Below, in pieces: positions 9,599 to 54,856 of a stretch of DNA of 64,000 bases (the first letter of the stretch is position 1; each line of letters opens with the position of its first letter). Source of the DNA: Candidatus Woesearchaeota archaeon (GTDB taxonomy: Archaea > Nanobdellota > Nanobdellia > SCGC-AAA011-G17 > PNOQ01); NCBI GenBank assembly GCA_964344555.1, contig CAYFNK010000003.1, positions 9,565 through 73,564 of the forward strand, written 5' to 3'. The translations under genes and the position numbers were made by a program. The notes under the pieces are model-generated. The model saw nothing but the letters and a program-made list of their open reading frames with translations, was not told the origin of the DNA and did not search any database.

Positions 9599-10246
9599 TC
9601 ATTTTTTATTTGAAAATTTTCTTTCAAAATTAAGATACAAATCTTCCATTTTTTTAAGATTTGCTTGCACAGAATTAGATATTTTTTCTATTTTTGTTAT
9701 TTCTCCCTTGACTTGTTTATTTAATTTTACTAATGCTTCACTATCTTTGAATCTTTTTATTGTAGTTCTCATATCTTTCATTTGAGAAAATATCTCATCA
9801 ATCATCCCTCTAAGAGATTCATTCTTAGTTTCAATTTTGTCCAATCTAACATCGTATCTGGCAAAGCCTTTTACAACCTTCTTGGGATTCATTGCTTTAA
9901 CTAAATCAGATGCCTTTTCAGCCTCGGTTTCAATTTTTTTTAATTTCTTTTCTTTTTCAAAGAATAAAGACCTTAAACTACCAATTTGTTCAGAAATATT
10001 ATTTATCTTATCAGAATCAGCCTTTCTAAAATCCTTTAGTATCTCTACCTCTGCTTCGAGTTTTTCAATTACTGCCTGAATTTTAGAATCATCAGAAATA
10101 CTTTGTTTAGGTTCTTCTTTTACTTCCATAGGTTGAGCAGATTGTTTACTCATGGGAGAAACCTCTGGAGCCCCTTTACCTAGGCTTTTTACTCTTTCTA
10201 GAAATCCTCTTTTTTGTGGAGTTTCTTTCTTTTGTTTTTTTGCCAT
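9599..10246 (-). CDS. coiled-coil protein, hypothetical (start probably internal Met near 10153)
   Basis: 215 aa with a heptad-rich Lys/Glu sequence. The N-terminal 31 codons overlap the 3' end of the giant gene in another frame, so the likely start is MSKQSAQP. Confidence 0.45.
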   Translation of the reverse strand: MAKKQKKETPQKRGFLERVKSLGKGAPEVSPMSKQSAQPMEVKEEPKQSISDDSKIQAVIEKLEAEVEILKDFRKADSDKINNISEQIGSLRSLFFEKEKKLKKIETEAEKASDLVKAMNPKKVVKGFARYDVRLDKIETKNESLRGMIDEIFSQMKDMRTTIKRFKDSEALVKLNKQVKGEITKIEKISNSVQANLKKMEDLYLNFERKFSNKK

Positions 10247-13200: not shown

Positions 13201-16200
13201 TCTCCATTATCATATAATTCACCAACATTCAACGAACAAACAATTTCCGTGGTAAGGCCAACTAATTCGGAAGAGCAGTCGTCGATTTCAGTTACTTCAA
13301 CTTCATCTTTAATCAACATAAAAGTAGTTAATTCGGATAAGTCTGCCTCAACGTTATCCTCAATTTCCGTCCTGATTTCTAAATTAGAATCACCGAATCC
13401 AGGATCAACAGATTCTTCCATAATTATATTAATTGTAGGAGGATAGGTGTCTGCATAATTAATATATTCATAAGTATAAGAGTCAATAATATTATATTCT
13501 AAATCCCTTACAACTACTTCTAAACCTAAATCTTTCTGTTCAAGCAGAGCATCTATTTCAGGTAATACACAAATTCCTTCAGAAGTGATTTCACAATCCC
13601 CTATCTCTTCTTCTTCATCTAATACAGTTACACTGATAAGTTCAAAATTAGAATACTCTGCGTCTTCTAAAGTTGTTAATATTGTTAATTCGATTTCTTC
13701 TCCACCTCTAAGGTCCTGGTCTTCATCTAGGAGTACATCTTCAACATCAAAATCTACAACTGTAATATTATAAGAGAAAGGAATGGAATTTCCATTTTCA
13801 TCTTCTACGGTAAATTCTCCTGGGTAATTTCCTTCAATATTTCCAAGCCACTCCAGAGTTAGTTCTCCAACTGTATTAGCTTCTATTGTTATTTCAGAAT
13901 CTTCAAAGTTTTCATTTTCAATACTAAATCCTAACTCTTGCTCTGCAGTATTTTCTACAATAATCTTTCCAAGATTTAAGCTTTGATCTGGAGCAACGTA
14001 AAGGTCATTCAAATCAACATCCAATTCCGTGCTAAATTGAGCATTCCAGGGATTGACTATTAACTCCATTACTAGGGGTTGGACATTTTCGTCTTGATCA
14101 CTTACAATGATACTAAGATTCCAAACAACATTCATTTCTTGGTAAGTTTCAGTCAATGAAAATTGTATATTTGTGCTTCCGCCATGAGGTACAGTATACT
14201 CTCCCTCTACATCCTGTATATTTTCTGATATCCCAAAATCTCCTTCAAGTTCAAGGTCTAAGATAAGATCAACATTTCCAAGATTTTCTAGAACAATGTA
14301 TCCTATGTCTGATTCAAACAAATCAACGCTCTCTCCTAAGTTGTCACCCAGTACTTGCCAACTTATATTTGGAATTACTTCAATAGTTATTGGAATCTCT
14401 TCATAAATTTGATTTTCATCATCATAATCAAAACTCATTATAATTTCACTGATATAAGTTTTACCTTCATAATCTTCTGGAACAGTTATAGTTACCGTTA
14501 GGTCTTCGGTTCCTGATATCTCCACGTCTAGTTGTTCGGTTGATAAACTTACAAGATCTACAATCTCCTCGTATACGGATAAATCTAATTCGATATCGAT
14601 ATTACCTTTGTTTTCAATCGAAATAGTTTGTTCTTCCGTTTCAGAGTTGTTTAATTGGAAAGACAGCTCGGTTGGAGAGTAATTTACATTTAAAATGGGA
14701 TTTGGACTATATTGGAATGAAATCTCTTCTTCTGATTCAGAACCATCATTGTTTATCCAATTGTAAACTATTTTGAAAGTGTAGGGATTATCTGGAGGGG
14801 CAGGCTCGGTACCCTCCTCAACTTGAATAGAAATGTCATTAATTTGACAATCCAAACCATATTCTGCAGAACCACATTCTCCATCCGACGGAGAAATTTG
14901 ATTTAGAATATCCCCTACTTCGTACTCTATTTCATAAGCCCATCCTTCTCCATTATTTGTAAATATTAAATCTCCAGTTAATGTAAAATTATCGTTAAAC
15001 ACAAAATCAAAAGTTAAATCTATGTTTGTAGTAGGAGATTCTATGTATATTCCTCCAACTGTGGATATTGGGAGATCTATTGCATCGTAATATTGCCCAG
15101 GGACGGAACACTGTACATTTCCATCAGTTAAACCAAAATTATATAATTGCACTGCGCATCCTTCATTATTAATTGATTCACAAGTTTCATCTCCAAAATT
15201 GACAGTACAAATACTTCCATTAATATTATCTCCATCTAAATTTGTGTAAACTGGAGTTATTGTAACTTCGGTATATCCATTTCCATAAGATACATCAGGA
15301 GAAGGAATGCTTAATCTCATTTCTTCCCAAATAATAATCGAGTCGGAATAAGATGACGAACTATGTCCAATTTTATCACAATATAACTCATAGAAATATT
15401 CTCCTTGTGTATTAAAATTAGTTGAGTAGGAATAAAAACTTTCTTCCTCTGTCATAGAAACCCCTTCATCACCAATATTAATATGACAATCTGCATCTGA
15501 AATAAGTTCTTCACTAGTAGAGTATACTACGTTAAAAGTTACTTCGTTTCCAATATAATATATTTCTTGGAAGGAAGCTATGTCATAAATCAAAGAAGTA
15601 TTATAAGGAATTATCGTAAAACTTTCTTCTTCAAACAACCCACCTTCATAAGTACAAGACACAGAATATGTATAGTCTCCATCTCCATCCTCTAAAAATT
15701 GAGTAGAATACGAATACAATCCTTCTTCAAGATTTCCAGAGTCATTTATTATTTCATTTCCTTCACTATTTAGCACACTTAATTGGCAAGTTGTTCCGTT
15801 AAAACTTTGTCCGAAGTCAAGAATCGTTGCAGTAAATTGATGATTATCATCATAGTATTCCCCTTCATGAGAGATAGATAAGCCTATAACATACACACCA
15901 AGAGTAAAATCAATTATTCCCCCATATCCATCATCAACAGTAAAACTTAGATCATTCTGACCTACATCATATTCATCAACAATAAAAGTATAAACTCCTC
16001 CTTCTACAACATTATTTCCTTCGTCGTAGAAAGTAAGTGAATCTTCATCTACATCACTAACGTAATCTTCCAAATTGATATCGATACTATCAGTTTTAAC
16101 AGATACATATACGTCAACAGGACTAGCTACAGGTGCACTATTAACAACTTCTATTTGCTGACTTGCTTCAGAACAACCATAAGCATCACAAGCTTCACAA

Positions 16201-18059
16201 GACACAGTAATAATTTCATGAGAATAATTTACTAAAAGGGATGCCCATAAAGAAGGGGCAATACACATATTATCATCACAAGAATGTACCAATTCTTCAT
16301 CTTCATCAGTAAAATATATAGAAAGATTTATTAGATCATTCTCAGGATCCCCATTATCCGTACACTCTGCGTACCACGGATCAATTCCAACATAAATTTC
16401 TTCTTCAGAAAGGGTTAAAGTTGGAACATTTGGTGGTGTATTAATAATCTCAAGTTCATTGGAAATAACAGTTTCTCCTTCTTCCACAATACCTATAGGA
16501 GTAACAGCAACAGACCAAATGTCTTCAACTTGAGTTTCGCTACTTAGTAATGTATTGACCGGATTTTCATTCTCCCCTGACAAATATTCTTCATAAATCT
16601 GTTCTTCAGAAAGGACCTTATCAAATATCTTTACCTCATCAATATATCCTTTAAATGATGAATACTGGTTAAAGTTACAATTGTCCCCAACATATGAATA
16701 ATATTTTGAACCAATCCTTAGTTCAGTTGCGCTACTTGAAGAATTAATTTGTTCAATCTCGCAAGTTTTATCAAGACCACCATTTATATATATTTTAACT
16801 TTGTGATCTTCATAAGTAAGTGCAACATGAGTCCAATCTTCATTAGAAACTACTTCGTAAGAGTAGCATGTGCTGCTTCCTCCAGACCATACATCATAGA
16901 ATCCCATGAACTTAATTTTTCCATCTGTACCAAGGTATATTCTATACCCTTCGGAACAAATATCATCACTTTCGCAACATCCTCCACTAGATTTAAATCC
17001 ATTTACAAATATATTTCTAGTGCTCCCAGTATCTTCTGGGTATATCCAAGCTTCCAAAGTATAACTTCCATTAACAAGAAATCTTTCAGGATATCCAAGA
17101 GGGATTCCTATTTTTTGATAATTATTTTGTTCAGGGAAGTAGTAAGATCCACCAATTTTTCCAGAAGAATCCCAAGAAATAGAATCATGGTAAGTTATGT
17201 TTCTATAGTATGTAGAAAAATCTGATCCCCCCTCTACGTCCAAGGGGAGATTTGCTAATGCAATGGATTCACCATCAACTCTCCAATCAGTATTTATTGT
17301 TTGAGTATTTTCATTAGCTTCGTAAGTGACGGTAAGATTATCAAACACTCCATTATTTCCACTACTTGAACTAAGAACAACGTCAGAAACTTCAGGAGTA
17401 GTACTTCTTGTCTCAGTTTCCTCACTTTTTTCAGTAACTTTTTCTACAATTTCTTCTTTCTCAGGCTCATCAAAAACAGAAACAACATCAACAATAACAT
17501 CTTCAACTTTTCCAACTTCACTAGGAACAACAATTCTAGAATCACCGGGCTCAACTTCTTTAGTATAAGTTTCTTTCCCCTCAGAACCAATAACAGTAAT
17601 TTCCACACTAATAGAACTATCGAATCCACTAATAATGTCTACTCCAACTCCACGGCCACTAGAGCTATACTCATAACTAAGGTCCTTACCAGGCCCTAAC
17701 TGAACAACTTCATAATCTGGAACAAAAAATAAAGTCAAAAATCCAACTAAAGATAACATAAGTAAAGATAATGCCAACAAAAAGAAAGGACCATGCTTAA
17801 AGAAAGAAAAGTCAGATTCCTTGTGGGATAACCCTAAATCCTTAGCCTTCTTCTTAGCAACTTTCTTATCAGAACCTAAGTATAAAGTCTTAGTTCCGCC
17901 TTCAGAATTACGTACAGTATGATAATAATAATCTTTATTTTTTATTCTCTTTTTGTGCAAGTTAACCCACACCTCTCTTTGACTAAAATAACTTAAATTA
18001 TAATATATAAATCTTTTCAATACAAAAATATTTAAACAATCAAAATAAGAAAAAATCAT
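10176..18059 (-). CDS. Giant membrane-anchored surface protein (2627 aa): N-terminal signal anchor, LamG/ConA-like domain, long array of beta-sandwich adhesin-like repeats, C-terminal TM helix, cytoplasmic HerA/FtsK-like (DUF87-type) P-loop ATPase, poly-Lys tail
   Basis: Single uninterrupted 7.9 kb ORF. LamG-like region (WTHVALTYEDHKVKIYINGG...YIDEVKIF). TM segment YYLLLISIALLLVGGFYSL. Walker A LIAGATGSGKTV and VFDPTGQW. Walker B LLMVYDEVHRL. The start is uncertain because it sits back-to-back with the scpA start. Confidence 0.8.
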   Translation of the reverse strand: MIFSYFDCLNIFVLKRFIYYNLSYFSQREVWVNLHKKRIKNKDYYYHTVRNSEGGTKTLYLGSDKKVAKKKAKDLGLSHKESDFSFFKHGPFFLLALSLLMLSLVGFLTLFFVPDYEVVQLGPGKDLSYEYSSSGRGVGVDIISGFDSSISVEITVIGSEGKETYTKEVEPGDSRIVVPSEVGKVEDVIVDVVSVFDEPEKEEIVEKVTEKSEETETRSTTPEVSDVVLSSSSGNNGVFDNLTVTYEANENTQTINTDWRVDGESIALANLPLDVEGGSDFSTYYRNITYHDSISWDSSGKIGGSYYFPEQNNYQKIGIPLGYPERFLVNGSYTLEAWIYPEDTGSTRNIFVNGFKSSGGCCESDDICSEGYRIYLGTDGKIKFMGFYDVWSGGSSTCYSYEVVSNEDWTHVALTYEDHKVKIYINGGLDKTCEIEQINSSSSATELRIGSKYYSYVGDNCNFNQYSSFKGYIDEVKIFDKVLSEEQIYEEYLSGENENPVNTLLSSETQVEDIWSVAVTPIGIVEEGETVISNELEIINTPPNVPTLTLSEEEIYVGIDPWYAECTDNGDPENDLINLSIYFTDEDEELVHSCDDNMCIAPSLWASLLVNYSHEIITVSCEACDAYGCSEASQQIEVVNSAPVASPVDVYVSVKTDSIDINLEDYVSDVDEDSLTFYDEGNNVVEGGVYTFIVDEYDVGQNDLSFTVDDGYGGIIDFTLGVYVIGLSISHEGEYYDDNHQFTATILDFGQSFNGTTCQLSVLNSEGNEIINDSGNLEEGLYSYSTQFLEDGDGDYTYSVSCTYEGGLFEEESFTIIPYNTSLIYDIASFQEIYYIGNEVTFNVVYSTSEELISDADCHINIGDEGVSMTEEESFYSYSTNFNTQGEYFYELYCDKIGHSSSSYSDSIIIWEEMRLSIPSPDVSYGNGYTEVTITPVYTNLDGDNINGSICTVNFGDETCESINNEGCAVQLYNFGLTDGNVQCSVPGQYYDAIDLPISTVGGIYIESPTTNIDLTFDFVFNDNFTLTGDLIFTNNGEGWAYEIEYEVGDILNQISPSDGECGSAEYGLDCQINDISIQVEEGTEPAPPDNPYTFKIVYNWINNDGSESEEEISFQYSPNPILNVNYSPTELSFQLNNSETEEQTISIENKGNIDIELDLSVYEEIVDLVSLSTEQLDVEISGTEDLTVTITVPEDYEGKTYISEIIMSFDYDDENQIYEEIPITIEVIPNISWQVLGDNLGESVDLFESDIGYIVLENLGNVDLILDLELEGDFGISENIQDVEGEYTVPHGGSTNIQFSLTETYQEMNVVWNLSIIVSDQDENVQPLVMELIVNPWNAQFSTELDVDLNDLYVAPDQSLNLGKIIVENTAEQELGFSIENENFEDSEITIEANTVGELTLEWLGNIEGNYPGEFTVEDENGNSIPFSYNITVVDFDVEDVLLDEDQDLRGGEEIELTILTTLEDAEYSNFELISVTVLDEEEEIGDCEITSEGICVLPEIDALLEQKDLGLEVVVRDLEYNIIDSYTYEYINYADTYPPTINIIMEESVDPGFGDSNLEIRTEIEDNVEADLSELTTFMLIKDEVEVTEIDDCSSELVGLTTEIVCSLNVGELYDNGELESNEIYTVEVSTSDYYGNLAVNHSEFLVIDLIYNIEMEFTDAQGNELTGVSLMFCLPGTDSCSDPITTAENENSLTISEIGNSIWDLNINYQGIVDFTFYDVDLSQLEEHSNFFSLDFFDYSGTFIPESLVNNYISLYGVVVESEIFDLGTINELHMDGTFFDEDTPYWYIGYVGWLTEHMNYVVCHDWSYSERTCNDLESIEIISEEYSYDSEEGVFSYVPPLEEEDLEGDEFSAYLLSINTCGNGDQESWETETSCGADFADTYSEQPPSQPSGPSGGGGDGSSGGSQPQQQLSESLIFSLNKIEKELFPGEEAYELIHISSITEDVTSLDVEVSGEIQDLITVPSSIEIATNPDLIVNIAIPEDKDNGLYEGKISFTRADIYSEVLVEIRVLNSEYNLLSLDIDPLQDSVSAGNDISIETQVTNNGNNQNVDINLELLDLEDTETPLSEDNYTVEVLFDYTELLSLSTPSDLDEGFYYVKGKAIHSGVTGRGTISMAQIEVIRSVLNATFLGIKFKYYLLLISIALLLVGGFYSLEFVRQKTRRYKGKVDIKSIPRSADRAAFVGKVAETPINSYIGLDKLQTHTLIAGATGSGKTVGAMDVVEEALDKKVSVIVFDPTGQWTGYLRKSTQTNMLDRYRFFGMSPKSAKAYEGNIYKITDPKEQIDIKEHIKPGKITVFVVKDLKPKEIDVLVTTTVEQVFRANLPETGKLKLLMVYDEVHRLLSKFGGSGAGLIQLERGAREFRKWGVGLVLISQVLSDFIGDIKANIGNEIQFRTRYENDLKRIRMKYGSKYSQSVIREAIGTGMYVNAGYNKGLPYFVSFRPLKHNTFGLPAEELNKYTKYNKTLDDIRWKISQLKKAKVDVFDVEIELKLIDEKLSQGNFNMVDLYLESMKPNLDKIVKKHRRKIGRKKVETFTSKELKEILDRAKSMRKKYIKKAPKDLIPVTKEAKEEMAKEVERAKKKQTMKKLKKKKTKKVNNGKKTKERNSTKKRISRKSKKPR

Positions 18060-23127: not shown

Positions 23128-23442
23128 AGTGTAGGCAAGCGTAAGCCACGTTTTGTTAGGTTCTCGATAACGAACGAACCCTCCGACATTCAACTTAGCG
23201 TCTCAATGACTTGCACAAGTCGGGTCTGCCGTTTCACCGTTCCCCCACATAAACTCAGCTGGTTAACTCACTTTTGTTACCAAAAGCTTCGCAACATCAT
23301 TGCTAACAATGTAAGGACGTGTCGTTTCTGTGCGGTTGCCTTGGATTTCTCCAACTTAATTTTAAGCGACCGATAATTAGTGCGTGGACTTTCCTCCCAG
23401 TTACAGGTTAGTCGGACACTCACCTACATAAAACCAGACTAA
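23128..23442 (-). ncRNA. rnpB: RNase P RNA (archaeal type A)
   Basis: GC-rich island. On the minus strand: CR-I GGGAGGAAAGUCCACGC, CR-II GGUGAAACGGCAG, CR-IV CACAGAAAC, CR-V ACAAAACGUGGCUUACG. Termini form a P1-like pairing (GUAGG/CCUAC). Confidence 0.75.
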
Positions 23443-23473
23443 ATTTTGATTTATAAAATTAACTATTTGACTA

Positions 23474-23496
23474 CATTGTTAAGTTAGCGGGACTTA
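23474..23496 (+). repeat. Left terminal inverted repeat of the 6.2 kb element
   Basis: CATTGTTAAGTTAGCGGGACTTA, preceded by ACTATTTGAC-TA. Confidence 0.55.
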
Positions 23497-23498
23497 TT

Positions 23499-24479
23499 TC
23501 AAATTAAGTTTGAATTTTTTAGATTTTGTAAATGTTTTTCCAATAATTCTTGGTAATAATTCACTGTTCTATTTTCACTTAAATTTAATTCCCCTTTCTT
23601 TGTTTTATCCAATCTTAAAGCATGCCATAATACCTCATGGACTCTAAATATATCTGTATACAAGTCAACTCTTGTTCTAAAATCTCCAGTTTTTCCTTGA
23701 TATTGATTTAATATCTTTTCAATATCTTTATTTGAAAAATCATTAGATCTTAAAAGAGATGAAATTTCAAATGCCCTATCGCCGACACTTGAATGCTCCC
23801 AATCGATAAATCTTATTTTTCCATTTGGAGTGTAAATGATGTTTTCGGGATGTAAACCCGTGTGTACAAGTCCCATTTGTGAATTATCAAATGCTTCTCT
23901 TTTTTCATTAATTTTTTCTACTCCTTTTTCTGTTGCTGTTCTTGATAATCTATAAATATCATCTTCTCCAACTCTGTCTGCATATTCAGCTATTTGTCTT
24001 TGTGCATGAAAAGGAAACATATGGACATAATCCCAACAACTGTCAATGTCTCTTTTAAATCCTTTTTTATTTCTTAATATTTCTGGAGATATTTCTGCCA
24101 TTGAATTTAAGGAATTTAATATCTGTTCAAGATATGACCCCATTTTCTCCCCCATTAATGTTTTTCCCTCTATCATTTCTAGAATCATTGACTGATTCTT
24201 CAATGAGTCCTCATCATAAATATAAGCACGAGGAGCCACTTCAAAACTCTCTAGAGCTTTCAGTTTATGATACTCTCTTTCAAAAAATTCCAGATCTTTT
24301 CCACTAACTCCATTAATCTTTAAAACAAATGGTTTGGATCCAAATTTTATAAAATGAACCTTATTAGATTCTCCAGAATATGATCCTATGATTATCGGTT
24401 TTTCTTTACAATCATATAAACCTAATCTTGCTTGATCAATTTTCTCTATATATTGTTGTATTTCTATTCCTTTATTCAT
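23499..24479 (-). CDS. Aminoglycoside-phosphotransferase/choline-kinase family kinase (APH fold)
   Basis: 326 aa. Catalytic loop VHTGLHPENIIY and IDWEHSSVGD (the DxxxxN / D-[FW]-E motifs of the APH/ChoK family). Confidence 0.75.
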   Translation of the reverse strand: MNKGIEIQQYIEKIDQARLGLYDCKEKPIIIGSYSGESNKVHFIKFGSKPFVLKINGVSGKDLEFFEREYHKLKALESFEVAPRAYIYDEDSLKNQSMILEMIEGKTLMGEKMGSYLEQILNSLNSMAEISPEILRNKKGFKRDIDSCWDYVHMFPFHAQRQIAEYADRVGEDDIYRLSRTATEKGVEKINEKREAFDNSQMGLVHTGLHPENIIYTPNGKIRFIDWEHSSVGDRAFEISSLLRSNDFSNKDIEKILNQYQGKTGDFRTRVDLYTDIFRVHEVLWHALRLDKTKKGELNLSENRTVNYYQELLEKHLQNLKNSNLI

Positions 24480-25398
24480 TTTTTATTAGAGTATATAATT
24501 TATTTGCACCAATATTTCCAATTGAGGGAAGTTTAGAAAAAACCCAGTTCGGCAATGAGTTTGAGGTTGCTTGAATTCCCATTGGCTTTAATATTTTTGG
24601 ATAAAGTACTCTTGACATATAATAATAAGAAGATGTTGGATCCTCTTCTCTGAAAACTGTGAGTCCGTTATCAGATGTTATTTTAATAAAATCTTCTGTT
24701 AAAGGGAGGCAGTGAAAGGGCAAATCAATTGATTCTAAACCAAAATCATTTCTTAGTTTATTTAGTCTTTCGTAACCTTCCATAAAAAGATCAAAAATAA
24801 ATATCTTACCCCCCGGTATTGTCAATCTAGATAATTCTTCAATAGCCCTTTTTTGTTCCCTTCTTGAAGGTAGATTTGATAAAGCCCTTTTAGCATACAC
24901 TATATCAAATGAATTACTTTCTCTAAGAACATTAGTCATTTCCCCAACCTCAAAATGAATTTCCCTTAGTCCTTTTTCTTGTTTTAAAATATTAGCCATA
25001 TCTATGGCTTTGCTATTAGCATCAATACCCAAAACATAATTATCTCCAGGTCTTGTAATAGCAATTGTACTATGCCCATTAGCACATCCTACATCAAGTA
25101 TTTTTTTACCCCCATAAGGATAAATTCTTTCTCTTAATATTCTATTTTCTCTATGGTTAAGATGTATGTCTGGAAACCCAAATTCTTCCGAATCTCTATA
25201 TTTTGTTGCACGTTTATTCCAAAAGTCTTTATTCATAACTCTTCTTGTGTCTTCAAGAAATACTTCGGGATTAGATAAAACAATTTGTGCATACTCCTTA
25301 GATTTTTCTAAATCAACCTGAGTGACTTTTTTTGCGAGATTATCTAATCCACAAAAAGGGTAAGATATTGTCATTGGGCTTGGAACACTTGCGACCAT
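24472..25398 (-). CDS. Class I SAM-dependent methyltransferase (true start probably the internal Met near 25236)
   Basis: Motif I ILDVGCANGHSTIAI; post-I acidic residue. The N-terminal 50-odd codons of the ORF are antisense to the radical-SAM N-terminal homology, which suggests a shorter gene. Confidence 0.7.
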   Translation of the reverse strand: MVASVPSPMTISYPFCGLDNLAKKVTQVDLEKSKEYAQIVLSNPEVFLEDTRRVMNKDFWNKRATKYRDSEEFGFPDIHLNHRENRILRERIYPYGGKKILDVGCANGHSTIAITRPGDNYVLGIDANSKAIDMANILKQEKGLREIHFEVGEMTNVLRESNSFDIVYAKRALSNLPSRREQKRAIEELSRLTIPGGKIFIFDLFMEGYERLNKLRNDFGLESIDLPFHCLPLTEDFIKITSDNGLTVFREEDPTSSYYYMSRVLYPKILKPMGIQATSNSLPNWVFSKLPSIGNIGANKLYTLIKNE

Positions 25399-25528
25399 TG
25401 CAAAAAGTGAGGGATTTAACGTTGGAGTATTAGATGCCGAAGCACAACCAAGAGGTTCTTTAGAAAATATTGCTCAAAAAATTAATTATCATTCACCAAG
25501 ATATGTTGGATTTAGTAGTAATACTCCC

Positions 25529-26677
25529 ATGTATTCTAATACTTTAGAATTATGTTCATTGTTAAATCAAGATATTCCAATAATTATTGGAGGAGCTCAT
25601 GCTTCTGCGTTACCCAAACAAACTGCTAAAGATTTTAAAGATATGAATTTTTATTTATTAATAAGAGGACCTGCTGAAGATGCGATTGTTGATATACTTT
25701 CAAATACTCCAAAGCAAAAAATTCCTAGATCAGTCTATTATAATCAAGGAGGTAGATTAGTTGAAAATGAGGTCATTCCTATCGGAAGTTTTCAAAACTA
25801 TCCGCATGTAGATAGATCTTTTTTTATTAATGATCCTCTAGAAATTGGAGGAAATATGACTTCTTTTCTATTATCTTCAAGGGGATGTTTTTATGATTGT
25901 TCTTTTTGCTCAATTCATACAACCTGGGATCAAAAAACAATGTTTAGGGAGGTTGATGATATCTTAGATGAAATGAAAAACCTTTATTCAAGAGGAGTAA
26001 GATCATTTAAATTTCTTGATGACTTATTTTTAATTAATTCAAAGAGACTAAATGAATTTTATCAAGGTTTAGGTAGAAGAGATTTATTGGGTAAATTGGA
26101 TTGGTCTGCAAATTCAAGAGTTAATGTAATAAATAGATTTTCTGACTATGATATAACCTTATTAGCGCAAAGTGGATGTGGTGGAATTGGACTAGGATTA
26201 GAATCGGGAAATGATGATCTCCTTAAAACTATCGGAAAGGGTTTTACCTCTGAAGAAAGTAGAGAGTCTGTAAGGAGGCTAAGAAATGCTGGAATAAAAT
26301 CTTATGGATATTTCATTATAGGTTTTCCGGAAGAAGATGATTCTCAGATAAATAATACAATTAATTTTGCTTATAGGTTATCTAATGAGTTTGGTTTAAA
26401 GGCGGGCATAGTTCCATATAAGCTTTATCCTGGTTCAAGAGATTATAAGAATATTATTGGAAATAACCCTTCAAACGAAAGAGTTCATCAACTAATTAAG
26501 TTTAAAACAGCATCTTTAACTCATCCAAATGATCCCGAATCAGTTAAGAATTTCTTAAAACAAAGGGAAAGACATACGGTTATTCACAATCCCGAACACT
26601 ATAATCCCTCAAACATAAGTTCAGACAAAATAGTTGAATATATAAGAGATTTTTATTTAAGGAGCAGATTTGGATAG
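25529..26677 (+). CDS. B12-binding-domain radical SAM protein (possible N-terminal disruption)
   Basis: C-x3-C-x2-C as GCFYDCSFCS, followed by a TIM-barrel radical SAM core. The B12-binding Rossmann homology continues upstream of the ATG to an in-frame TAA at 25361-25363. Confidence 0.75.
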   Translation: MYSNTLELCSLLNQDIPIIIGGAHASALPKQTAKDFKDMNFYLLIRGPAEDAIVDILSNTPKQKIPRSVYYNQGGRLVENEVIPIGSFQNYPHVDRSFFINDPLEIGGNMTSFLLSSRGCFYDCSFCSIHTTWDQKTMFREVDDILDEMKNLYSRGVRSFKFLDDLFLINSKRLNEFYQGLGRRDLLGKLDWSANSRVNVINRFSDYDITLLAQSGCGGIGLGLESGNDDLLKTIGKGFTSEESRESVRRLRNAGIKSYGYFIIGFPEEDDSQINNTINFAYRLSNEFGLKAGIVPYKLYPGSRDYKNIIGNNPSNERVHQLIKFKTASLTHPNDPESVKNFLKQRERHTVIHNPEHYNPSNISSDKIVEYIRDFYLRSRFG

Positions 26678-27052
26678 ATTAATAAGTTCAAGGAAAAAAT
26701 CTTTATAAGTTATAGGTTCCAGATTGGCAAGTTCCTCATATGTAAACCATCTATGATCTGAGTGTTCTTCTGAAATAACTACCTCTTTAGTCGTTGGTTT
26801 TCCAAGAAATACCATGGCCATAATCTCTCCATCTTTATCAAGTTCTTTAACAATCCTAATAATTTCTATATCCAAATTTACTTCCTCTTTAGTTTCTCTA
26901 ATTGCGGCATCTTCAAATGATTCCCCCTCCTCAAGTTTTCCTCCAGGACATTCCCAATTACCACAATGCTCAATTTTTTCCTTATCTGCTCTTTTCACTA
27001 GCAGATATTTTCCTTCATCGTCCTGAATAATAATTTTTACTTGTTTTGACAT
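26657..27052 (-). CDS. NUDIX hydrolase
   Basis: 131 aa. Nudix box GGKLEEGESFEDAAIRETKEEVNL. Confidence 0.85.
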   Translation of the reverse strand: MSKQVKIIIQDDEGKYLLVKRADKEKIEHCGNWECPGGKLEEGESFEDAAIRETKEEVNLDIEIIRIVKELDKDGEIMAMVFLGKPTTKEVVISEEHSDHRWFTYEELANLEPITYKDFFLELINLSKSAP

Positions 27053-27102
27053 AATATAAGAATAAAAGATTAATTTAAAAACTTAACTAAATTCGTATAA
27101 AC

Positions 27103-27597
27103 ATGGATAAAAATATAATTAAAATTTTCAAATATGTTCAAAAAATACCTTATAGAGTATGTAAATTTGAAAAAGAAAAGATTACTTATAAGCTTAAATA
27201 TGGGGATTGTAGGCATAAGGCCTTTTTATTAAAAACACTTTTAGAAAAACAAGGATATGAAGTTATGGAAATAAAGGTAATTTTTGATTGGAAAGATTTG
27301 CCAATACCAAAAGAGATAATCTCAATTTTAAAAAAATCTTCAACAATCTGGCCACATGATTCTTTAAAGGTAAAAATTAAAAATAGATGGGTTAAAATTG
27401 ATCCAACATGGAATCCTGAATTAGAAAAAAAGGGTTTTCCAATAACAAAAAAATGGGATGGGAAAACAGATACTAAACAAGTAACCGAAGGCAAATTAAA
27501 ATTTTATAAAAAAGAAAAATATATTAAAAAAAATAAAATTAATCTTGACGAAGCAAAAATGTTTGCAGAGATATTAAATGAATATTTAGCTGCATAA
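27103..27597 (+). CDS. Transglutaminase-like (papain-fold) domain protein
   Basis: 164 aa. Candidate Cys-His-Asp triad YGDCRHKAF ... WPHDS ... KIDPTWN. Confidence 0.5.
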   Translation: MDKNIIKIFKYVQKIPYRVCKFEKEKITYKLKYGDCRHKAFLLKTLLEKQGYEVMEIKVIFDWKDLPIPKEIISILKKSSTIWPHDSLKVKIKNRWVKIDPTWNPELEKKGFPITKKWDGKTDTKQVTEGKLKFYKKEKYIKKNKINLDEAKMFAEILNEYLAA

Positions 27598-28422
27598 AGA
27601 GATCTGATTTTTAATAGACAATGCTATTTTTTCCAAATTATTGCCATAAATTGCAGCAGTATGGGGAGTTAAAATAAGATTCTCAACATTTTTGTAAGAC
27701 TCTAAATCTAAATCATTTGGATAAGTATCAAAAATTGCTCCACCCAGAGTTCCATTTTTTACTCTTTCAAAAATTTCTTTTTCTTCCAAGATTCCAGTTC
27801 TTGAGAGATTTACAACAACTGAATTGGGTTTAATTATCCCTGTTTTATTTAATCCTATGCTCTTTGTAGCTTCAGACAAGGGAAGAGTGTTGATAATTAC
27901 ATCGCATGACATAAAAACCTTTTCCAACCCTTCCAATCCACCAGAATGAGCAACTTTTTCTAAAGGATTTAAAGGGGTTTCTTTTAAAATCCAAAATTTA
28001 CAATTATAATCACTTAAGGCAGAATAAATCTCCTTTCCAATATTTCCAAAGCCAAGTAATCCTACATTTTTTTTGTCAAAATACTCTTCTAAGGTTGTTC
28101 CAGCTAATTTTCTTATGTTATCCAAAAAATACTGAATTACCCCTTTAGATATAACTGATTTGTCTTGATAAATCGAAATACCTCTTTCTTTCACTTTTTC
28201 TAGTTCAATTTCTTCAGTTCCTGAAGTGGGAATAATTAGTGCTCTAAGGTTTGGTAATTTTCTTAAATCATCATTAGAGAGATAATTTGTTACAAGAATT
28301 TCGGTATTTGGGTCAATTACTCTTTGAGTATAATTCGCAACTACTCCATTATCTTTGAGAGCTTCGACTATATAATTTTCTCTCCATTTTGAAGGCGCTT
28401 TTATCCTGATTGAAGTTTTCAT
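27586..28422 (-). CDS. D-isomer-specific 2-hydroxyacid dehydrogenase family protein (NAD-binding)
   Basis: 278 aa. GLLGFGNIGKEI Rossmann motif. Catalytic region ...LSRTG...DTYPNDLD...TPHTA. Confidence 0.8.
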   Translation of the reverse strand: MKTSIRIKAPSKWRENYIVEALKDNGVVANYTQRVIDPNTEILVTNYLSNDDLRKLPNLRALIIPTSGTEEIELEKVKERGISIYQDKSVISKGVIQYFLDNIRKLAGTTLEEYFDKKNVGLLGFGNIGKEIYSALSDYNCKFWILKETPLNPLEKVAHSGGLEGLEKVFMSCDVIINTLPLSEATKSIGLNKTGIIKPNSVVVNLSRTGILEEKEIFERVKNGTLGGAIFDTYPNDLDLESYKNVENLILTPHTAAIYGNNLEKIALSIKNQISLCS

Positions 28423-28456
28423 AAATCTTGTAAAATCACTTAATTTATATTATTTT

Positions 28457-29401
28457 CTAGTTGCTCTTACTGCGCTTTATCAGCTCTAACCATTTATTAT
28501 TTTCCTTAAGTTTTAGATTGGTGGCCAATTCATAGGGGCAGCAATTTATAGTTTGATGTTTCCTTATGAAATTGTAAAAAATTACATAACCTTTCATAAT
28601 TGCATCTGCACTTTCTACACTTCCATGAAATCCACGAAAAGTTTTAGTTCGTTCTCTTATTGAGTTATGCAATCTCTCAATGTAAAGATTAAAACCTTCT
28701 CCATTTGAAGCAACAACAGGATTATGGATTATATTGTATTTCTGCTCTTTAAGATTCCAGCCCCAAGTTTTTTTTACAACCCCTTTATAAACTTGCCAGC
28801 CATCCGTTGTAATAGTGGTTACATAACCTTCTGTTTTGTATTTAACTTTGCCCATGATTTCCTTGATTTCTTGTTGTCCTCTTGCCTTGAAATATTTAGC
28901 ACTTACCAAATACCTTGTTTTAACATCAATACTATCAATAAACCAATCCTTACAAGTTCCTTTATTTTTATGTTCTTCTCGTCGATGATATTCCATTTCA
29001 TCAACCTGAATTTCTTTTCCAGAATTAATTTTTAATTTGTCTGTAAAACCTGAAATCATATTGGCGTATTTCACAACCCAATTATACACAGAAACATTAG
29101 TAGAATTACTAGGATAAAAAGCTTGGAAATGTTCTTGGACTTTTCTTGTAGAGACTCCCTTATAAAATAAATCCAAAGCACAGGTTACCTTATTGGGATG
29201 ATTTCTCATCCTAAAAAAACCATCGTCAATCACAAAACGATGCTTACAATTTTTACAAGAATACCTTTGTATCTTGCCCCTATTCTCTGTTTTTCTGAAA
29301 CCCCTCTTGATGATTTTTTCAGATTTACAATTAGGACAAGAAAGTTTTTTATAGTCGTTCCCTTTACTATTATTGGAATTGATTTGTGCTTGGTCGTGCA
29401 T
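28457..29401 (-). CDS. DDE transposase with N-terminal zinc ribbon (IS1595/IS6-like), copy 1
   Basis: 314 aa. C-x2-C...C-x2-C zinc ribbon, HTH (KGVSTRKVQEHF), DDE region (QVDEMEY, TTDGWQVY, NN-IERLHNSIRERTK...RGFH). About 50% identical to the ORF at 52295..53233. Confidence 0.8.
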   Translation of the reverse strand: MHDQAQINSNNSKGNDYKKLSCPNCKSEKIIKRGFRKTENRGKIQRYSCKNCKHRFVIDDGFFRMRNHPNKVTCALDLFYKGVSTRKVQEHFQAFYPSNSTNVSVYNWVVKYANMISGFTDKLKINSGKEIQVDEMEYHRREEHKNKGTCKDWFIDSIDVKTRYLVSAKYFKARGQQEIKEIMGKVKYKTEGYVTTITTDGWQVYKGVVKKTWGWNLKEQKYNIIHNPVVASNGEGFNLYIERLHNSIRERTKTFRGFHGSVESADAIMKGYVIFYNFIRKHQTINCCPYELATNLKLKENNKWLELIKRSKSN

Positions 29402-29407
29402 TTTGAT

Positions 29408-29428
29408 TCCCGAGCCCTTCGGGGCTCG
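29408..29428 (-). promoter_or_regulatory. Stable hairpin CGAGCCC-CGAA-GGGCUCG in the transposase 5' leader (about 7 nt upstream of the ATG on the mRNA); also 3' of the RHH gene
   Basis: A GC-rich 7-bp stem with a CGAA loop in an AT-rich context. A similar CGAA-loop hairpin precedes the second transposase copy at 52265-52281. Confidence 0.35.
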
Positions 29429-29443
29429 TTTAATTTATTATGA

Positions 29444-29599
29444 TTATCTTGTTAGCGGATCTTTCTTTTCTAAATCTCCTTTAATTAAAATTGCTATTCT
29501 GCTACTAAGATTAATTCCATTAGCTTCGCAAAATTTTCTAAAATCTGCAAGTAACTTTTTAGGCAGAGTTATGTTTAATCTTCCGTAATGTTTATCCAT
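29444..29599 (-). CDS. Ribbon-helix-helix (CopG/Arc-family) DNA-binding protein, 51 aa
   Basis: MDKHYGRLNITLPKKLLADFRKFCEANGINLSSRIAILIKGDLEK matches the RHH beta-strand plus two-helix consensus. Lies between the right TIR and the transposase. Below the ORF-track size cutoff. Confidence 0.5.
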   Translation of the reverse strand: MDKHYGRLNITLPKKLLADFRKFCEANGINLSSRIAILIKGDLEKKDPLTR

Positions 29600-29660
29600 A
29601 CTTATTAATGAGTATTGCTACTATTTAAATGTTTCTCTAAACTTCTTAGTTACAACTCGC

Positions 29661-29683
29661 TAAGCCCCGCTAACTTAACAATG
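29661..29683 (-). repeat. Right terminal inverted repeat of the 6.2 kb element
   Basis: The reverse complement is CATTGTTAAGTTAGCGGGGCTTA, followed on the plus strand by C-ACTATTTGAC. Confidence 0.55.
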
Positions 29684-30524
29684 CACTATTTGACATAATG
29701 AAATCTAAACCTTTTTCTAATCCATATCTATAATCATGTTCTATAGATTCTTGAAAATGCTTAATTGTAGTAGTTTTTAGATCTTCATCAGGTGCTATTT
29801 GATAAACTTCCAAATCTTCTGGAGGGGAATTCAAAAATTTTGCATCTTTATTATAAATTTCTGGATGGTGATATAGTACGTCTTGGAATTTTTCATATTC
29901 ATCATAAAATTTAGGACTTAAGATATCATTTAAAGTTCTATCTGAAATAAAATCAATTGGATGAGTTCTTAAAACTATAATTTTATTTGCCCCCATTTTG
30001 TAAGCTTGTTTGGCAGGTATAGGATCAGACATTCCTCCATCAAGTAATTTTCTTGAATCAACTTCACAATACTTAGAAGTTACTAAAGGTAATGAACTAG
30101 AAGCCTTTAGATATTTCTTCCAAGTTTTAGTAGTGGGTTCTAAATATACTGGCTCCCCTTTTTCTATATCTGTAGCAACTATCACAAGTTTCTTATCTTT
30201 GATGTTTTCTATAGCCTTTTTTACCTTAAAGGGATTTTTCTTATTTCCTTCTTCTATTAAAAGATCTAAATCCATATAATTTCCACCTTTTAGATATCTA
30301 AAAATACTAAGAAAATTAGAATTAGATGCAATGTCTTTTATTAGTTCTATATTTCTTTTATATTGTTTTGAAGAAAATGAAGATAAGTTCATTGCTCCAC
30401 TAGAAACTCCAACATAAATATCAAATGGATCATAGTTGTGTGAAATAAAGGTATCTAAAATTCCAGCAGTGAATGCAGCTTTAAATCCTCCTCCTTCGAC
30501 AACTAAAGCAGATTTTTCTTTCAT
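29670..30524 (-). CDS. Patatin-like phospholipase
   Basis: 284 aa. Oxyanion hole GGGFKAAFTAGIL, nucleophile elbow GVSSGA, DGG motif. The last 4 codons and stop derive from the inserted element's TIR. Confidence 0.8.
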   Translation of the reverse strand: MKEKSALVVEGGGFKAAFTAGILDTFISHNYDPFDIYVGVSSGAMNLSSFSSKQYKRNIELIKDIASNSNFLSIFRYLKGGNYMDLDLLIEEGNKKNPFKVKKAIENIKDKKLVIVATDIEKGEPVYLEPTTKTWKKYLKASSSLPLVTSKYCEVDSRKLLDGGMSDPIPAKQAYKMGANKIIVLRTHPIDFISDRTLNDILSPKFYDEYEKFQDVLYHHPEIYNKDAKFLNSPPEDLEVYQIAPDEDLKTTTIKHFQESIEHDYRYGLEKGLDFIMSNSALLS

Positions 30525-30609
30525 AAAAAAAATAGTATAAACTAGTATAAAAAATTAATTAAAAAAAATAAAAATTTTCCAAAAGGAAAATCATAAGCAA
30601 GCACAACTG

Positions 30610-33515
<2,906 letters not shown>

Positions 33516-33633
33516 AACAGTAAAGTAAGTAATATACTTACGTTAAGTGCTTGCCTATGCATGATCATATTATAAAATAAGATCCTTCATCCAGAAACTT
33601 AGTTTTTGAATTGCACAATTCCTTATGGAAAAA

Positions 33634-33704
33634 TGGACCCACCGGGAATCGAACCCGGGCCTGGGCGTTGCAAACGCCCTGTTCTACCACTAGACTATGG
33701 GCCC
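33634..33704 (-). tRNA. tRNA-Ala (TGC) in the 16S-23S spacer
   Basis: Reverse complement GGGCCCATAGTCTAGTGG...GGGCGTTTGCAACGCCC...GGTTCGATTCCCGGTGGGTCCA. Confidence 0.85.
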
Positions 33705-33774
33705 AAAAGTAAACATAGTCAAAAATGCAATCGATAGAATTTGTCTCATATTTAATATTATTATAAAATAATAT

Positions 33775-35244
33775 AGGAGGTGATCCATCCGCAGGTTCCC
33801 CTACGGATACCTTGTGACGACTTAACCCACCTCACTGAACTCTGGTTCGAATCAATCAAAAAATTAATCCTCACCAAAACCCTGCTCGGTTGGCTTGACG
33901 GGCAGTGTGTGCAAGGCTCGGGGACGTGTTCACCGGACTGTGTTGAAATCCGATTACTAGGAATTCCATCGTCATGGGGGCGAGTTACAGCCCTCAATCT
34001 GAACTAAGATAGGGTTTAGAGGCTTAGCTTCTCCTCTCGGAGTTGCATCCCGTTGTCCCTACCATTGTTGCGCGCGTGTAGCCCAGCAGATTCGGGGCAT
34101 ACAGACCTACCGTTGCCCAAGCCTTCCTCCTTGTTTCCAAGGCAGTCCTCATATTGTGCTCATTCCTTCCGGAGAAGATGCTAGCAAATATGAGCATGGG
34201 TCTCGTTCGTTTTACGACTTAACGTAACACCTTACGGCACGAACTGACGGCGGCCATGCACCACCTCTCGGCTTGTCAGGTAAAACCTTCAATCTGACCT
34301 TCATTCTGCCGTCGCTGCTGGTGAGATTTTCTGCGTATAGTTAGATTAAACCGCACGCCGCACTCCTTGTAGCGAGCCCCCGCCAATTCCTTTAAGTTTC
34401 GGTCTTGCGACTATACTTCCCAGGCGGTGAGCTTAACATCTTCACTTAAGCGCTGCACATCCACGAAGAAAATGCAACACTCAGCTCACAGCGTTTACAG
34501 CTAGGACTACTCGGGTATCTAATCCGTTTTGCTCCCCTAGCCTTCGTTCCTGACCGTCGAATCCGTTCTGGATAGATGCCTTCGCCATCGGTGGTCTCCT
34601 AAGGATTATAGCATTTTACCGCTCCCCTTAGAATACCTCTATCCCCTCCCGGTTCCAAGTTTGACAGTTTTTCTTGCACGTTGATCAGTTAGGCTGAACA
34701 ATTTCACAAGAAAGTTATCAAACCGGCTACGAACGCTTTAGGCCCAATAAACATGGTTACCACTTGTGGCGCTGGTGTTACCGCGGCGGCTGGCACCAGT
34801 CTTTCCCACCACTTATTCTCCAAGCTTTTTACACTTGGCAAAAGCCTATGCAATACATAAGCACTCGGGATACCCTTATCACGCTTTCGCGCATTGTAAA
34901 GTTTCCGTGACTGCTGCACCCCTTAGGGCTAGGACCAGTATCTCAGTGTCCTTCTTGAGGCTAAGACTCTCATCTCCCCTACTGATCGTCGGCTTGGTGA
35001 GCCATTACCTCACCAACAACCTAATCAGCCGCCGACTCATCCTTAGGCCTTACGTTTCAAAGAAAGAGCTTTCCAGCACCAATCTTCTATTTGGATTTAG
35101 CCTCAGTTTCCCGAGGTTATTCCAAACCTAAGGGCAGATTATCGACGTGTTACTAAGCCTTTCGCCGGTGTCCGAAGACCCCTGAACTTGCATGTCTAAT
35201 TCGTATCCCAATAGCAGTAACCTCCCGCAGGATCAACGGGAATT
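33775..35244 (-). rRNA. rrs: 16S ribosomal RNA
   Basis: The reverse complement starts with AATTCCCGTTGATCCTGCGGGAGG. It contains CTGGTGCCAGCCGCCGCGGTAA and ends ...GGATCACCTCCT. Confidence 0.9.
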
Positions 35245-35667: not shown

Positions 35668-35785
35668 TGGGTCTGGGCGGATTTGAACCGCCGATCTCTG
35701 GTGTTCTTAGATTTTTGGAGTTAAAATTTGTACCAAAAACGGTCATATAAGACCAGTGCTTTAAACCAGACTAAGCCACAGACCC
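35668..35785 (-). tRNA. Intron-containing tRNA, most likely tRNA-Ile (anticodon TAT); intron of about 42 nt after position 37
   Basis: Reverse complement: acceptor GGGTCTG, D-arm TGGCTTAGTCTGGTTTAAAGCA, anticodon stem CTGGT with loop CTTATA, then an intron (tgaccgtttttggtacaaattttaactccaaaaatctaagaa), then ACCAG, T-arm GGCGGTTCAAATCCGCC and CAGACCCA. Confidence 0.7.
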
Positions 35786-51907: not shown

Positions 51908-51991
51908 GAGAAGAAACTCGTCTTGTTGATATTTAAATGTTTTGCAATATGTACATTGTAACGTTAAAGGGAGTTATTTAACTCAAAAAAA

Positions 51992-54855: not shown

Positions 54856-54856
54856 T

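Follow-up and report, generated by a model that had tools for sequence, protein, structure and literature searches.

Insertion sequences (ISs) that transport passenger genes form a recognised category, the 'tIS' of the ISfinder concept, and elements of the IS6 family are characterised by 14-bp inverted repeats and 8-bp direct repeats (PMC7986276). On the biosynthetic side, the tubercidin pathway employs a phosphoribosyltransferase (PRTase) dependent on 5-phosphoribosyl 1-diphosphate (PRPP), which joins the base to ribose-5-phosphate, together with Nudix, NAD(P)-dependent oxidoreductase, radical S-adenosylmethionine (SAM) and kinase-family steps (PMC6112128). Both kinds of system bear on a block of six enzyme genes at positions 23499–28422 of a 64,000-nucleotide stretch of DNA, referred to here as the window, from contig CAYFNK010000003.1 of a Candidatus Woesearchaeota archaeon. 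The reading favoured here, to which a probability of about 0.7 is attached, is that this block, a deletion remnant of a conserved gene cluster and no functional module of six genes, forms the cargo of a 6214-bp passenger-carrying IS.

DPANN archaea are host-dependent organisms with tiny genomes, and the ways in which they gain and lose metabolic capacity are poorly understood. The present locus appears to illustrate both processes, with a multi-gene cargo moved by a transposon and its core then deleted. The intact cluster found in other genomes represents a rare, conserved and uncharacterised enzyme set, and as such is a concrete candidate for biochemical discovery. The lesson for annotation is that the six genes of the window should not be taken as a working pathway.

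The transposon and its six passenger genes

The six enzyme genes travel inside a mobile element whose limits are marked by terminal inverted repeats (TIRs) and a perfect target-site duplication (TSD). From one TIR to the other the unit measures 6214 bp (23472–29685), and it holds the six cargo genes together with a transposase. The inverted repeat is recognised over 23 nt and extends to 25 nt, with 23 of the 25 positions complementary, and its 21-nt core occurs twice in the window against an expectation of 0.01. The left TIR ends 2 nt from the stop codon of the kinase-fold gene. The 9-mer CTATTTGAC stands directly outside both TIRs as a perfect duplication, and a 9-bp match at this fixed position would be expected by chance with a probability of about 1e-5. 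The preliminary description of this DNA had placed the genes inside an element as passengers, an assignment that is borne out by the 25-bp TIRs, the transposase and the perfect 9-bp TSD.

Read from the sequence, the site of insertion is the stop codon of a gene for a patatin-like phospholipase, and the pre-insertion site is a short spacer, a few tens of nucleotides long, between this gene and that of the RNase P RNA. The patatin open reading frame (ORF; 29670–30524) now stops inside the right TIR and has gained four codons, the terminal FIMSNS having become FIMSNSALLS. It is the whole TIR-to-TIR unit, cargo included, that inserted at the patatin stop codon next to the RNase P RNA, with duplication of 9 bp.

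The transposase is a protein of 314 amino acids with an N-terminal zinc ribbon and a DDE-type catalytic domain, and its matches to the IS6, IS1 and IS256 models are weak and all below the family cutoffs. It differs from IS6 in its scores on NF033587 (51 bits, cutoff 125) and PF13610 (25.6 bits, cutoff 27), and the element in its 25-bp TIRs and 9-bp TSD. For IS1, a family with an N-terminal zinc finger and repeats of 8–9 bp, the zinc ribbon scores 30.9 bits on NF050000 (cutoff 28) and the TSD measures 9 bp, and the transposase scores only 42.9 bits on NF033558 (cutoff 100). The resemblance to the tIS (PMC7986276) is closer in organisation, since the element likewise combines a single DDE-type transposase, TIRs, a TSD of fixed length and passenger genes between the transposase and one end. 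All of the features by which a tIS is defined are present in the window element, namely TIRs, a TSD around the whole unit, an internal transposase with copies elsewhere and genes that are not concerned with transposition. The transposase is 51% identical to a second copy in the window and 52% identical to that of locus L007 in another DPANN genome.

All six cargo ORFs were found exactly at the coordinates of the preliminary description. Its view that they are packed with overlaps of 7–20 nt holds for three junctions, where neighbouring ORFs overlap by 8, 21 and 12 nt, whereas at the other two the ORFs lie 130 and 50 nt apart, and the orientation is mixed (− − + − + −). The methyltransferase and kinase-fold genes, with their 8-nt overlap, are the sole overlapping pair in the same orientation. 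Five of the six family assignments stand at the superfamily level by profile search and the transglutaminase-like fold is supported by weak matches, but the kinase lacks its catalytic aspartate and both the methyltransferase and the radical SAM genes are truncated. The coordinates of these and other features are collected in the table below.

The first of the cargo proteins is full length, with 326 residues, and has the fold of aminoglycoside phosphotransferases (APH) and choline kinases; it scores above cutoff on PF01636 (cutoff 23.2) and on PF01633 (31.7 bits, cutoff 29). Its only relative in the PDB is LicA, the pneumococcal choline kinase (4R77). The Brenner motif HxDxxxxN, which is HIDLVPEN in LicA, reads HTGLHPEN here, with Gly in place of the catalytic Asp. 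This glycine, G208, is invariant in 18 family members, and an invariant His is found two residues on. Judging from these residues, the protein may be an atypical kinase or no kinase at all.

The radical SAM core retains its CxxxCxxC motif (GCFYDCSFC), and the B12-binding domain (PF02310) reaches 20.6 bits against a cutoff of 32.1, with model positions 79–120 alone matched. In the MutT-like hydrolase the Nudix box (GX5EX7REUXEEXGU) reads GKLEEGESFEDAAIRETKEEVNL, the sole change being that of the final G to N. The 164-residue protein has no match among the Pfam or NCBIfam models; in its 60 homologs the GDCRHK motif and C36 are near-invariant, and H85 and D100 invariant. Its structure model has a predicted local distance difference test (pLDDT) score of 95.6 and gives weak fold matches (best E 3e-3, TM 0.40–0.50) to the pseudomurein endoisopeptidases PeiP and PeiW, TglA and arylamine N-acetyltransferases, which are Cys-His-Asp enzymes. 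From the model, a 'transglutaminase-like' label appears reasonable at the level of the fold. The D-isomer-specific 2-hydroxyacid dehydrogenase family protein (2-HADH) scores 17.1 bits on the catalytic domain PF00389 (cutoff 24.6), and its best equivalog score is 71 bits against a cutoff of 389.

Table 1. Positions of the features discussed, in window coordinates (aa, amino acids; LSU/SSU, large and small subunit)
Feature	Position	Strand	Remarks
APH/choline-kinase-fold protein, 326 aa, full length	23499–24479	−	PF01636 52.6 bits
Class I SAM methyltransferase, truncated ORF, 308 aa	24472–25398	−	Several Pfam models at about 60 bits
Deletion junction	25376–25380		Two homologies abut head-to-head
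B12-binding radical SAM gene, 5'-truncated	25376–26677 (ORF from ATG 25529)	+	PF04055 74.7 bits
MutT-like Nudix hydrolase, 131 aa	26657–27052	−	PF00293 82.5 bits
Transglutaminase/papain-like protein, 164 aa	27103–27597	+	Conserved Cys36-His85-Asp100
2-HADH, 278 aa	27586–28422	−	NAD domain PF02826 78.9 bits
Transposase, 314 aa, N-terminal zinc ribbon and DDE-type catalytic domain	28457–29401	−	Weak profile matches, all below family cutoffs
Left TIR, TACATTGTTAAGTTAGCGGGACTTA	23472–23496	+	23/25 complementary to 29661–29685
Right TIR, reverse complement TGCATTGTTAAGTTAGCGGGGCTTA	29661–29685	−	Overlaps last patatin codons
Left TSD, CTATTTGAC	23463–23471		Identical 9-mer directly outside other TIR
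Right TSD, CTATTTGAC	29686–29694		
Second element, TIRs	51952–51976 and 59414–59438		24/25 complementary
Second element, transposase	52295–53233		
Archaeal RNase P RNA	23131–23427		
Archaeal LSU/SSU rRNA operon	30608–35243		

The intact cluster and the deletion in the window

Relatives of the kinase-fold protein number about 20 among 5.8 billion proteins. The contigs of eight of them were looked up, and further loci were obtained from a scan of species-representative genomes with the 164-residue protein. A gene-neighbourhood search had been proposed in the preliminary description, and the same genes were indeed found co-localised in 13 further DPANN loci, with their order conserved and their flanks unrelated. 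This is contrary to the outcome by which that description would have been refuted. In seven of the eight kinase-relative contigs, all but that of L009, the kinase-fold gene is adjoined by a gene for a nucleotidyltransferase-methyltransferase (NTase-MT) fusion within a larger cluster.

The conserved cluster comprises 8–10 genes and occurs in two forms, which are given here with variably present genes in brackets. Type A (nine loci) runs (2-HADH) – 164-residue protein – Nudix – (B12-radical SAM) – glycosyltransferase of family 4 (GT4) – HAD, divergent from TrpD-like PRTase – NTase-MT fusion – APH-fold protein. Type B (four loci) runs MT215 – 2-HADH – 164-residue protein – (B12-radical SAM), divergent from TrpD-like PRTase – NTase-MT fusion – P-loop thymidylate-kinase-like protein – HAD. 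Common to both are the TrpD-like PRTase, the fusion of about 507 residues, a gene in the kinase position, a HAD-family gene, the 164-residue protein and, mostly, the 2-HADH, which is conserved at the same end of the two forms. In type A clusters the Nudix gene adjoins that of the 164-residue protein, and GT4 is restricted to this type. The radical SAM gene, which is central to the scheme of the preliminary description, is dispensable: of the 13 loci, four have it in full length, one has a remnant of 80 codons and eight have none. The window is the only one of the 14 loci without PRTase, NTase domain and HAD yet with both ends of the cluster.

The ancestral cargo consisted of some 8–10 genes in two divergent operons. 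One led from the TrpD-like PRTase through the NTase-MT fusion to the kinase-fold protein and the other from HAD through GT4 to, in some versions, the B12-radical SAM protein, with the Nudix, transglutaminase-like and 2-HADH genes alongside.

At L007 an intact type A cluster lies inside homologous 25-bp repeats flanked by a perfect 9-bp duplication, GCAAAGTAG, the unit measuring 8370 bp and its cargo proteins being 40–68% identical to those of the window. As in the window, the repeat starts 2 nt past the kinase stop codon and the transposase is located beyond the 2-HADH. L010 and L004 have no transposase, yet a repeat is still recognisable behind the kinase, with 21 and 20 of 25 positions matching where the background reaches 16–17 at most; in L006, L008, L017 and L019 this repeat is lost. 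The association of cluster and transposon is therefore old, with several copies now immobile.

The eighth kinase-relative contig, L009 (4285–10576), encodes a truncated kinase homolog of 191 residues, with 62% identity (BLASTP) over 58% of the window kinase as query. Its neighbours are genes for a Nudix protein, an RNase T-like exonuclease, a double methyltransferase, a 554-residue HD-domain protein and a PRK-family kinase, and the locus also holds a stand-alone NTase-like gene with 25% identity. Possibly this is a further form of the cluster that has been rearranged or has decayed.

The window methyltransferase corresponds to the C-terminal 60% of the fusion of about 507 residues. Its close relatives are, in 14 cases out of 14, NTase-MT fusions of 507–520 residues, and the window ORF of 308 residues is the sole short one. 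When the proteins of L006, which has the fullest copy of the cluster, are aligned to the window by tblastn, residues 38–468 of the radical SAM protein (470 residues) map from 25376 onwards on the plus strand and residues 207–506 of the fusion map to 24481–25380 on the minus strand. At this junction 3476 bp are missing relative to L006, containing radical SAM codons 1–37, GT4, HAD, the divergent promoter region, the TrpD-like PRTase and NTase-domain codons 1–206. No copies of GT4, HAD or the NTase were detected elsewhere in the window by tblastn, and a Glycos_transf_3 paralog of 25% identity at 54866–55873 is the only related copy there.

The consequences for the two genes that border the junction can be read in detail. 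The first six codons of the methyltransferase ORF, up to the ATG at 25398, are new sequence that is antisense to the radical SAM fragment. In the radical SAM frame there is no ATG, GTG or TTG from the upstream TAA to the ATG at 25529, at about residue 89, and the product would at best lack the equivalent of the first 88 or so residues, with most of the B12-binding domain gone. The intact relatives resemble class B radical SAM methyltransferases such as PhpK, HpnJ and BzaD in combining an N-terminal B12-binding domain with a CxxxCxxC core (in L006, PF02310 scores 51.3 bits and PF04055 89.3 bits), whereas the window copy is without 37 codons and a start, and the best-scoring subfamily, PhpK, reaches 108 bits against 600. 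A single deletion of about 3.5 kb across the divergent promoter region took away the PRTase, HAD, GT4 and NTase domain and both 5' ends. Since the invariant core is lost and the genes on either side have been beheaded, the original pathway has most likely ceased to operate in the source genome.

Misassembly at 25376–25380 was rejected, since L003, an independent assembly from another sample, is 100% identical to the window and spans the junction by 45 nt. The contigs L002 and L003, from other samples of the same project, end at window positions 25353 and 25425, less than 50 nt from the junction. These ends could reflect strain heterogeneity, with intact and deleted alleles breaking the assembly graph.

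Relaxed selection had been expected for the retained genes. This was examined by taking the residues that are invariant in the intact relatives and scoring their change in the window copy, and neither frameshifts nor an excess loss of invariant residues was found in the retained genes. Changes amount to 0/91 in the methyltransferase, 7/114 in the kinase (controls 2–11), 1/68 in the Nudix protein, 2/74 in the 164-residue protein, 10/67 in the 2-HADH (controls 6–14) and 9/138 in the radical SAM protein (controls 4–41). As the retained coding sequence is without decay, the deletion looks recent; the data do not distinguish this from a continued benefit that part of the retained genes may confer by themselves.

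The composition of the block is indistinguishable from that of the host. Its GC content is 0.303 and that at third codon positions (GC3) 0.187, against 0.319 and 0.202 for 41 background genes, and its codon-usage distances, with the exception of the short Nudix gene, lie within the background range. The comparison, which the preliminary description had suggested, therefore gives no signal of recent horizontal gene transfer, and this explanation was dropped; any transfer either took place long ago or came from a donor with a similar composition. Of the proposal that the module was horizontally acquired, mobility is supported by the transposon context, but a recent foreign origin has no compositional sign.

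The same evidence decides how much weight is due to the view that the six genes are a self-sufficient, horizontally acquired module for small-molecule tailoring or resistance, working as it is. The genes are transposon cargo, they retain intact motifs without excess substitutions, and the methyltransferase and kinase genes are still co-oriented with an 8-nt overlap, all of which would suit such a module. This is nevertheless the sole locus of 14 in which PRTase, NTase domain and HAD are missing while both ends are kept, the methyltransferase and radical SAM genes have lost their 5' ends and a shared promoter region, and the latter has no canonical start before residue 89 or so. Moreover, the composition is that of the host and no specific resistance or phosphonate family is matched; the link to antibiotic, phosphonate and resistance loci that had been drawn finds no profile, structural or neighbourhood evidence. 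A self-sufficient module is consequently considered improbable, and the block is preferred as a deletion remnant.

Enzymes and putative chemistry of the intact cluster

The intact cluster is built around two recruited housekeeping folds, the PRTase of the tryptophan pathway and the catalytic half of the tRNA CCA-adding enzyme. The TrpD-like protein shares fold and length with TrpD, and its PDB relatives are anthranilate phosphoribosyltransferases alone, with E-values down to 1.5e-31. It has retained GTGGD, NxST and DE as PRPP/Mg motifs. However, it scores 178 bits on the trpD model TIGR01245, below the equivalog cutoff of 199, the acceptor-site KHGN is replaced by KNGF and no other trp genes are nearby. 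From these motifs it probably ribosylates an amine or a heterocycle other than anthranilate.

Sequence comparison (E 7e-22) and fold comparison (Foldseek, E 4e-14) agree in matching the NTase domain to the head and neck of archaeal class I CCA-adding enzymes. It has an invariant GS...DxD signature but no tRNA-binding body or tail; in their place stands a class I methyltransferase of the small-molecule type. On TIGR03671 the domain reaches 77.8 bits against a cutoff of 281, with model positions 2–270 of 410 alone matched, whereas genuine CCA enzymes score 340–470 bits. An exhaustive profile search of 1.84 billion representatives returned 15 proteins at E<=1e-30, about 11 of which are fusions of 503–528 residues, followed by head-and-neck-only proteins of about 250 residues and then by canonical CCA enzymes. 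The structural neighbours of the methyltransferase domain are the small-molecule enzymes RebM, AtmM, TleD and MitM. The stand-alone head-and-neck proteins (P0116, P0118–P0120, P0122 and P0123) score 65–72 bits on TIGR03671 over positions of about 15–257 and are the nearest relatives of the NTase domain of the fusion.

In type B clusters a thymidylate-kinase-like P-loop protein takes the position of the APH-fold gene, and because of this replacement a nucleoside- or nucleotide-like substrate is suggested. The HAD proteins also differ between the two types. In type A (L004, L006, L007, L008, L010, L013, L014, L017 and L019) they start with FD[LF][WF]GTL, and the resulting motif, D-x-[W/F]-G-T, is missing the general acid at Asp+2 and resembles the 2-haloacid-dehalogenase type. 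Those of type B (L011, 12239–12892) and of the second element in the window have the canonical DxDGT. GT4 is nearest to enzymes of the BshA/MshA type, which glycosylate small acceptors.

Judging from sequence and fold, the intact cluster probably makes or recycles a PRPP-derived, methylated small molecule that is nucleoside- or nucleotide-like. The PRTase would join PRPP to an aromatic amine other than anthranilate or to an N-heterocycle, and the kinase-fold protein, HAD and Nudix hydrolase would set the phosphorylation state. The domain derived from the CCA enzyme would use an NTP to attach a nucleotidyl group, and methylation of the product would fall to the fused methyltransferase, which is of the small-molecule type. 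GT4 (glycosylation), the radical SAM protein (C-methylation), the dehydrogenase and the transglutaminase-like protein would serve as optional tailoring enzymes. The small-molecule or nucleotide tailoring pathway envisaged by the preliminary description is accordingly retained as the best reading of the intact cluster, but not of the six genes, which have had the core deleted and form no complete module. Analogies with cobamide lower-ligand, thiamine, NAD and methanopterin pathways were set aside, as no equivalog-level match stands behind any of them. A TrpD-type inverting reaction on PRPP cannot, as far as is known, yield an alpha-riboside.

The likeness to the tubercidin/toyocamycin pathway (PMC6112128) is one of pathway logic only, with no orthologous enzymes. 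TubE is a type I purine PRTase, whereas the PRTase of the cluster is TrpD-like, and the radical SAM enzyme of tubercidin is QueE. Unlike the cluster, the tubercidin pathway has neither a nucleotidyltransferase-methyltransferase step nor a glycosyltransferase.

The descent of the NTase domain also invites the idea that the intact cluster acts on RNA ends, with a Pnkp-like kinase and phosphatase, CCA-like 3' addition and a Hen1-like methyltransferase cap. The nearest relatives of the domain are archaeal tRNA CCA-adding enzymes, and in type B a canonical DxDGT HAD comes immediately after the P-loop kinase, which matches the domain order of T4 Pnkp, where the kinase precedes the phosphatase. Yet the NTase is without the tRNA-binding body and tail (78 bits against 281), the structural neighbours of the methyltransferase are small-molecule enzymes and the HADs match capped HAD-IA/HAD_2 models, which are typical of small-molecule substrates. 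Since an RNA-end function would, moreover, offer no role for GT4 or for a TrpD-like PRTase with intact PRPP motifs, it is judged unlikely in comparison with the synthesis of a nucleotide-like small molecule.

LicA, as the only PDB relative of the kinase, raises the alternative of phosphocholine synthesis, in which an ethanolamine/choline kinase and a phosphoethanolamine N-methyltransferase would be accompanied by a LicC-like NTase. The best PDB sequence matches of the methyltransferase do include the phosphoethanolamine methyltransferases of plants and Plasmodium, but this similarity is confined to the generic SAM core (residues 96–204), and no structure of such an enzyme is present among the 50 fold matches listed. 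With the catalytic Asp of choline kinases missing, a thymidylate-kinase-like protein in place of the kinase in type B and no role for the PRTase, phosphocholine is a very improbable product.

Another possibility is that the cluster serves conflict or defence, its product being a modified nucleotide that acts as toxin, signal or immunity molecule; such a role would account for the mobility and the patchy distribution. The cluster is transposon-borne, rare and patchy, as the counts of kinase and NTase relatives given above indicate; it adjoins a type I restriction-modification system in L006 and a DNA methylase and an integrase in L011, and there are weak matches of the GT4-conflict and CBASS-cyclase-like kinds. 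Against this, the PADLOC models match generic domains only, no effector or sensor is recognisable and the cluster is not found on viral contigs; its mobility is uninformative, as the transposon family carries all kinds of cargo. A defence role is hence thought rather improbable. Two related candidates were rejected outright: a known defence system, for which the PADLOC search gave weak generic domain matches only, and a viral origin, since IMG/VR holds only stand-alone relatives of the methyltransferase domain, with no more than 35% identity and no other cluster genes nearby.

Several observations weigh against the account given here of remnant and intact cluster alike. No enzyme of the cluster is matched at the equivalog level, so no substrate can be named. 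The labels 'kinase', for a protein without the catalytic Asp, and 'phosphatase', for a type A protein without Asp+2, may both be wrong, and with an NTase of tRNA-enzyme descent an RNA substrate is possible. The gene for the 164-residue protein is also found alone in many genomes. Finally, the absence of decay in the window is equally compatible with selection on a residual function of the kinase and methyltransferase, the Nudix protein, the 164-residue protein or the dehydrogenase.

A broader proposal can be advanced as no more than a tentative and somewhat doubtful one. The intact cargo would be an undescribed pathway to a methylated nucleotide- or dinucleotide-like metabolite, serving as cofactor analogue, signal or toxin, and assembled from a TrpD-derived PRTase and a CCA-derived NTase-MT fusion. 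Like tRNA synthetase, DNA methylase and arsenic genes, it would be shuttled among DPANN archaea by a prolific and hitherto unclassified family of cargo-carrying ISs. If this were true, genes would be gained and lost in the reduced genomes of these organisms largely through this family.

The insertion sequence family and the remainder of the window

The window contains a second element of the same family, 7487 bp long (51952–59438), which together with its TSDs extends over 51943–59447. The duplication, TGCAATATG, is a perfect 9 bp, and its right copy overlaps the first 3 nt of the tRNA-Val gene (59445–59518). Its transposase is 89.7% identical to that of L007 and its left repeat is identical to the kinase-side repeat of L007, yet despite this near-identical chassis the cargo is entirely different. 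It encodes a nucleotidase-like HAD, a Zn-dehydrogenase, a TrpD-like protein, a divergent protein resembling tryptophanyl-tRNA synthetase and two tyrosyl-tRNA synthetases, one of archaeal and one of bacterial type.

At least 218 relatives of the transposase are present in metagenomes. The loci of 80 transposases were fetched for delimitation of elements, and in these the family repeat made it possible to define the ends of 13 further elements, with lengths of 2136–7989 bp and perfect 9-bp TSDs in 11 of the 13. This brings the number of delimited elements to 16 (two in the window, that of L007 and the 13 others), all at different sites. The layout is constant, consisting of a repeat, a leader of about 330 nt, the transposase, the cargo and the second repeat. 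At least 14 of the other elements carry cargo unrelated to the six genes, including proteins resembling leucyl- and alanyl-tRNA synthetases, dCTP deaminases, an LD-carboxypeptidase and GT4 with a SPASM radical SAM protein. Further cargo consists of a carbamoyltransferase, an ArsP permease with a methyltransferase, DNA methylases, a 2-HADH and a CDP-alcohol phosphatidyltransferase. In comparison with the tIS (PMC7986276), the cargo of this family is large, up to about 7 kb or 8–9 genes, and variable between near-identical chassis. In the literature searched no description was found of a DPANN IS family with such cargo, nor of the gene cluster itself.

Single genes of the cluster also travel as cargo, because L046 and L112 hold them next to a transposase. 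In L046 (3268–4731) a homolog of the 164-residue protein, and in L112 (1162–1617) a Nudix158-like gene, is located directly beside a transposase of the family.

The window as a whole is AT-rich and archaeal, with a GC content of about 31% outside the rRNA operon. It belongs to a metagenome contig of 237 kb. Nearly all relatives of the block proteins carry the labels Woesearchaeota, Pacearchaeota or Nanoarchaeota and stem from metagenome-assembled genomes, which makes a DPANN archaeon the most likely source. The window includes two giant ORFs, of 2627 (10176–18059) and 2106 residues (43617–49937), and surface or ATPase proteins of such size are a typical feature of DPANN genomes. The first of these has matches to Laminin_G_3, DUF87/HerA-like and ResIII in the precomputed annotation of L001. 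Beside the tRNA-Glu gene, Rfam gives a 118-nt tRNA match at 35668–35785, where ARAGORN makes no call, and this is probably an intron-containing archaeal tRNA.

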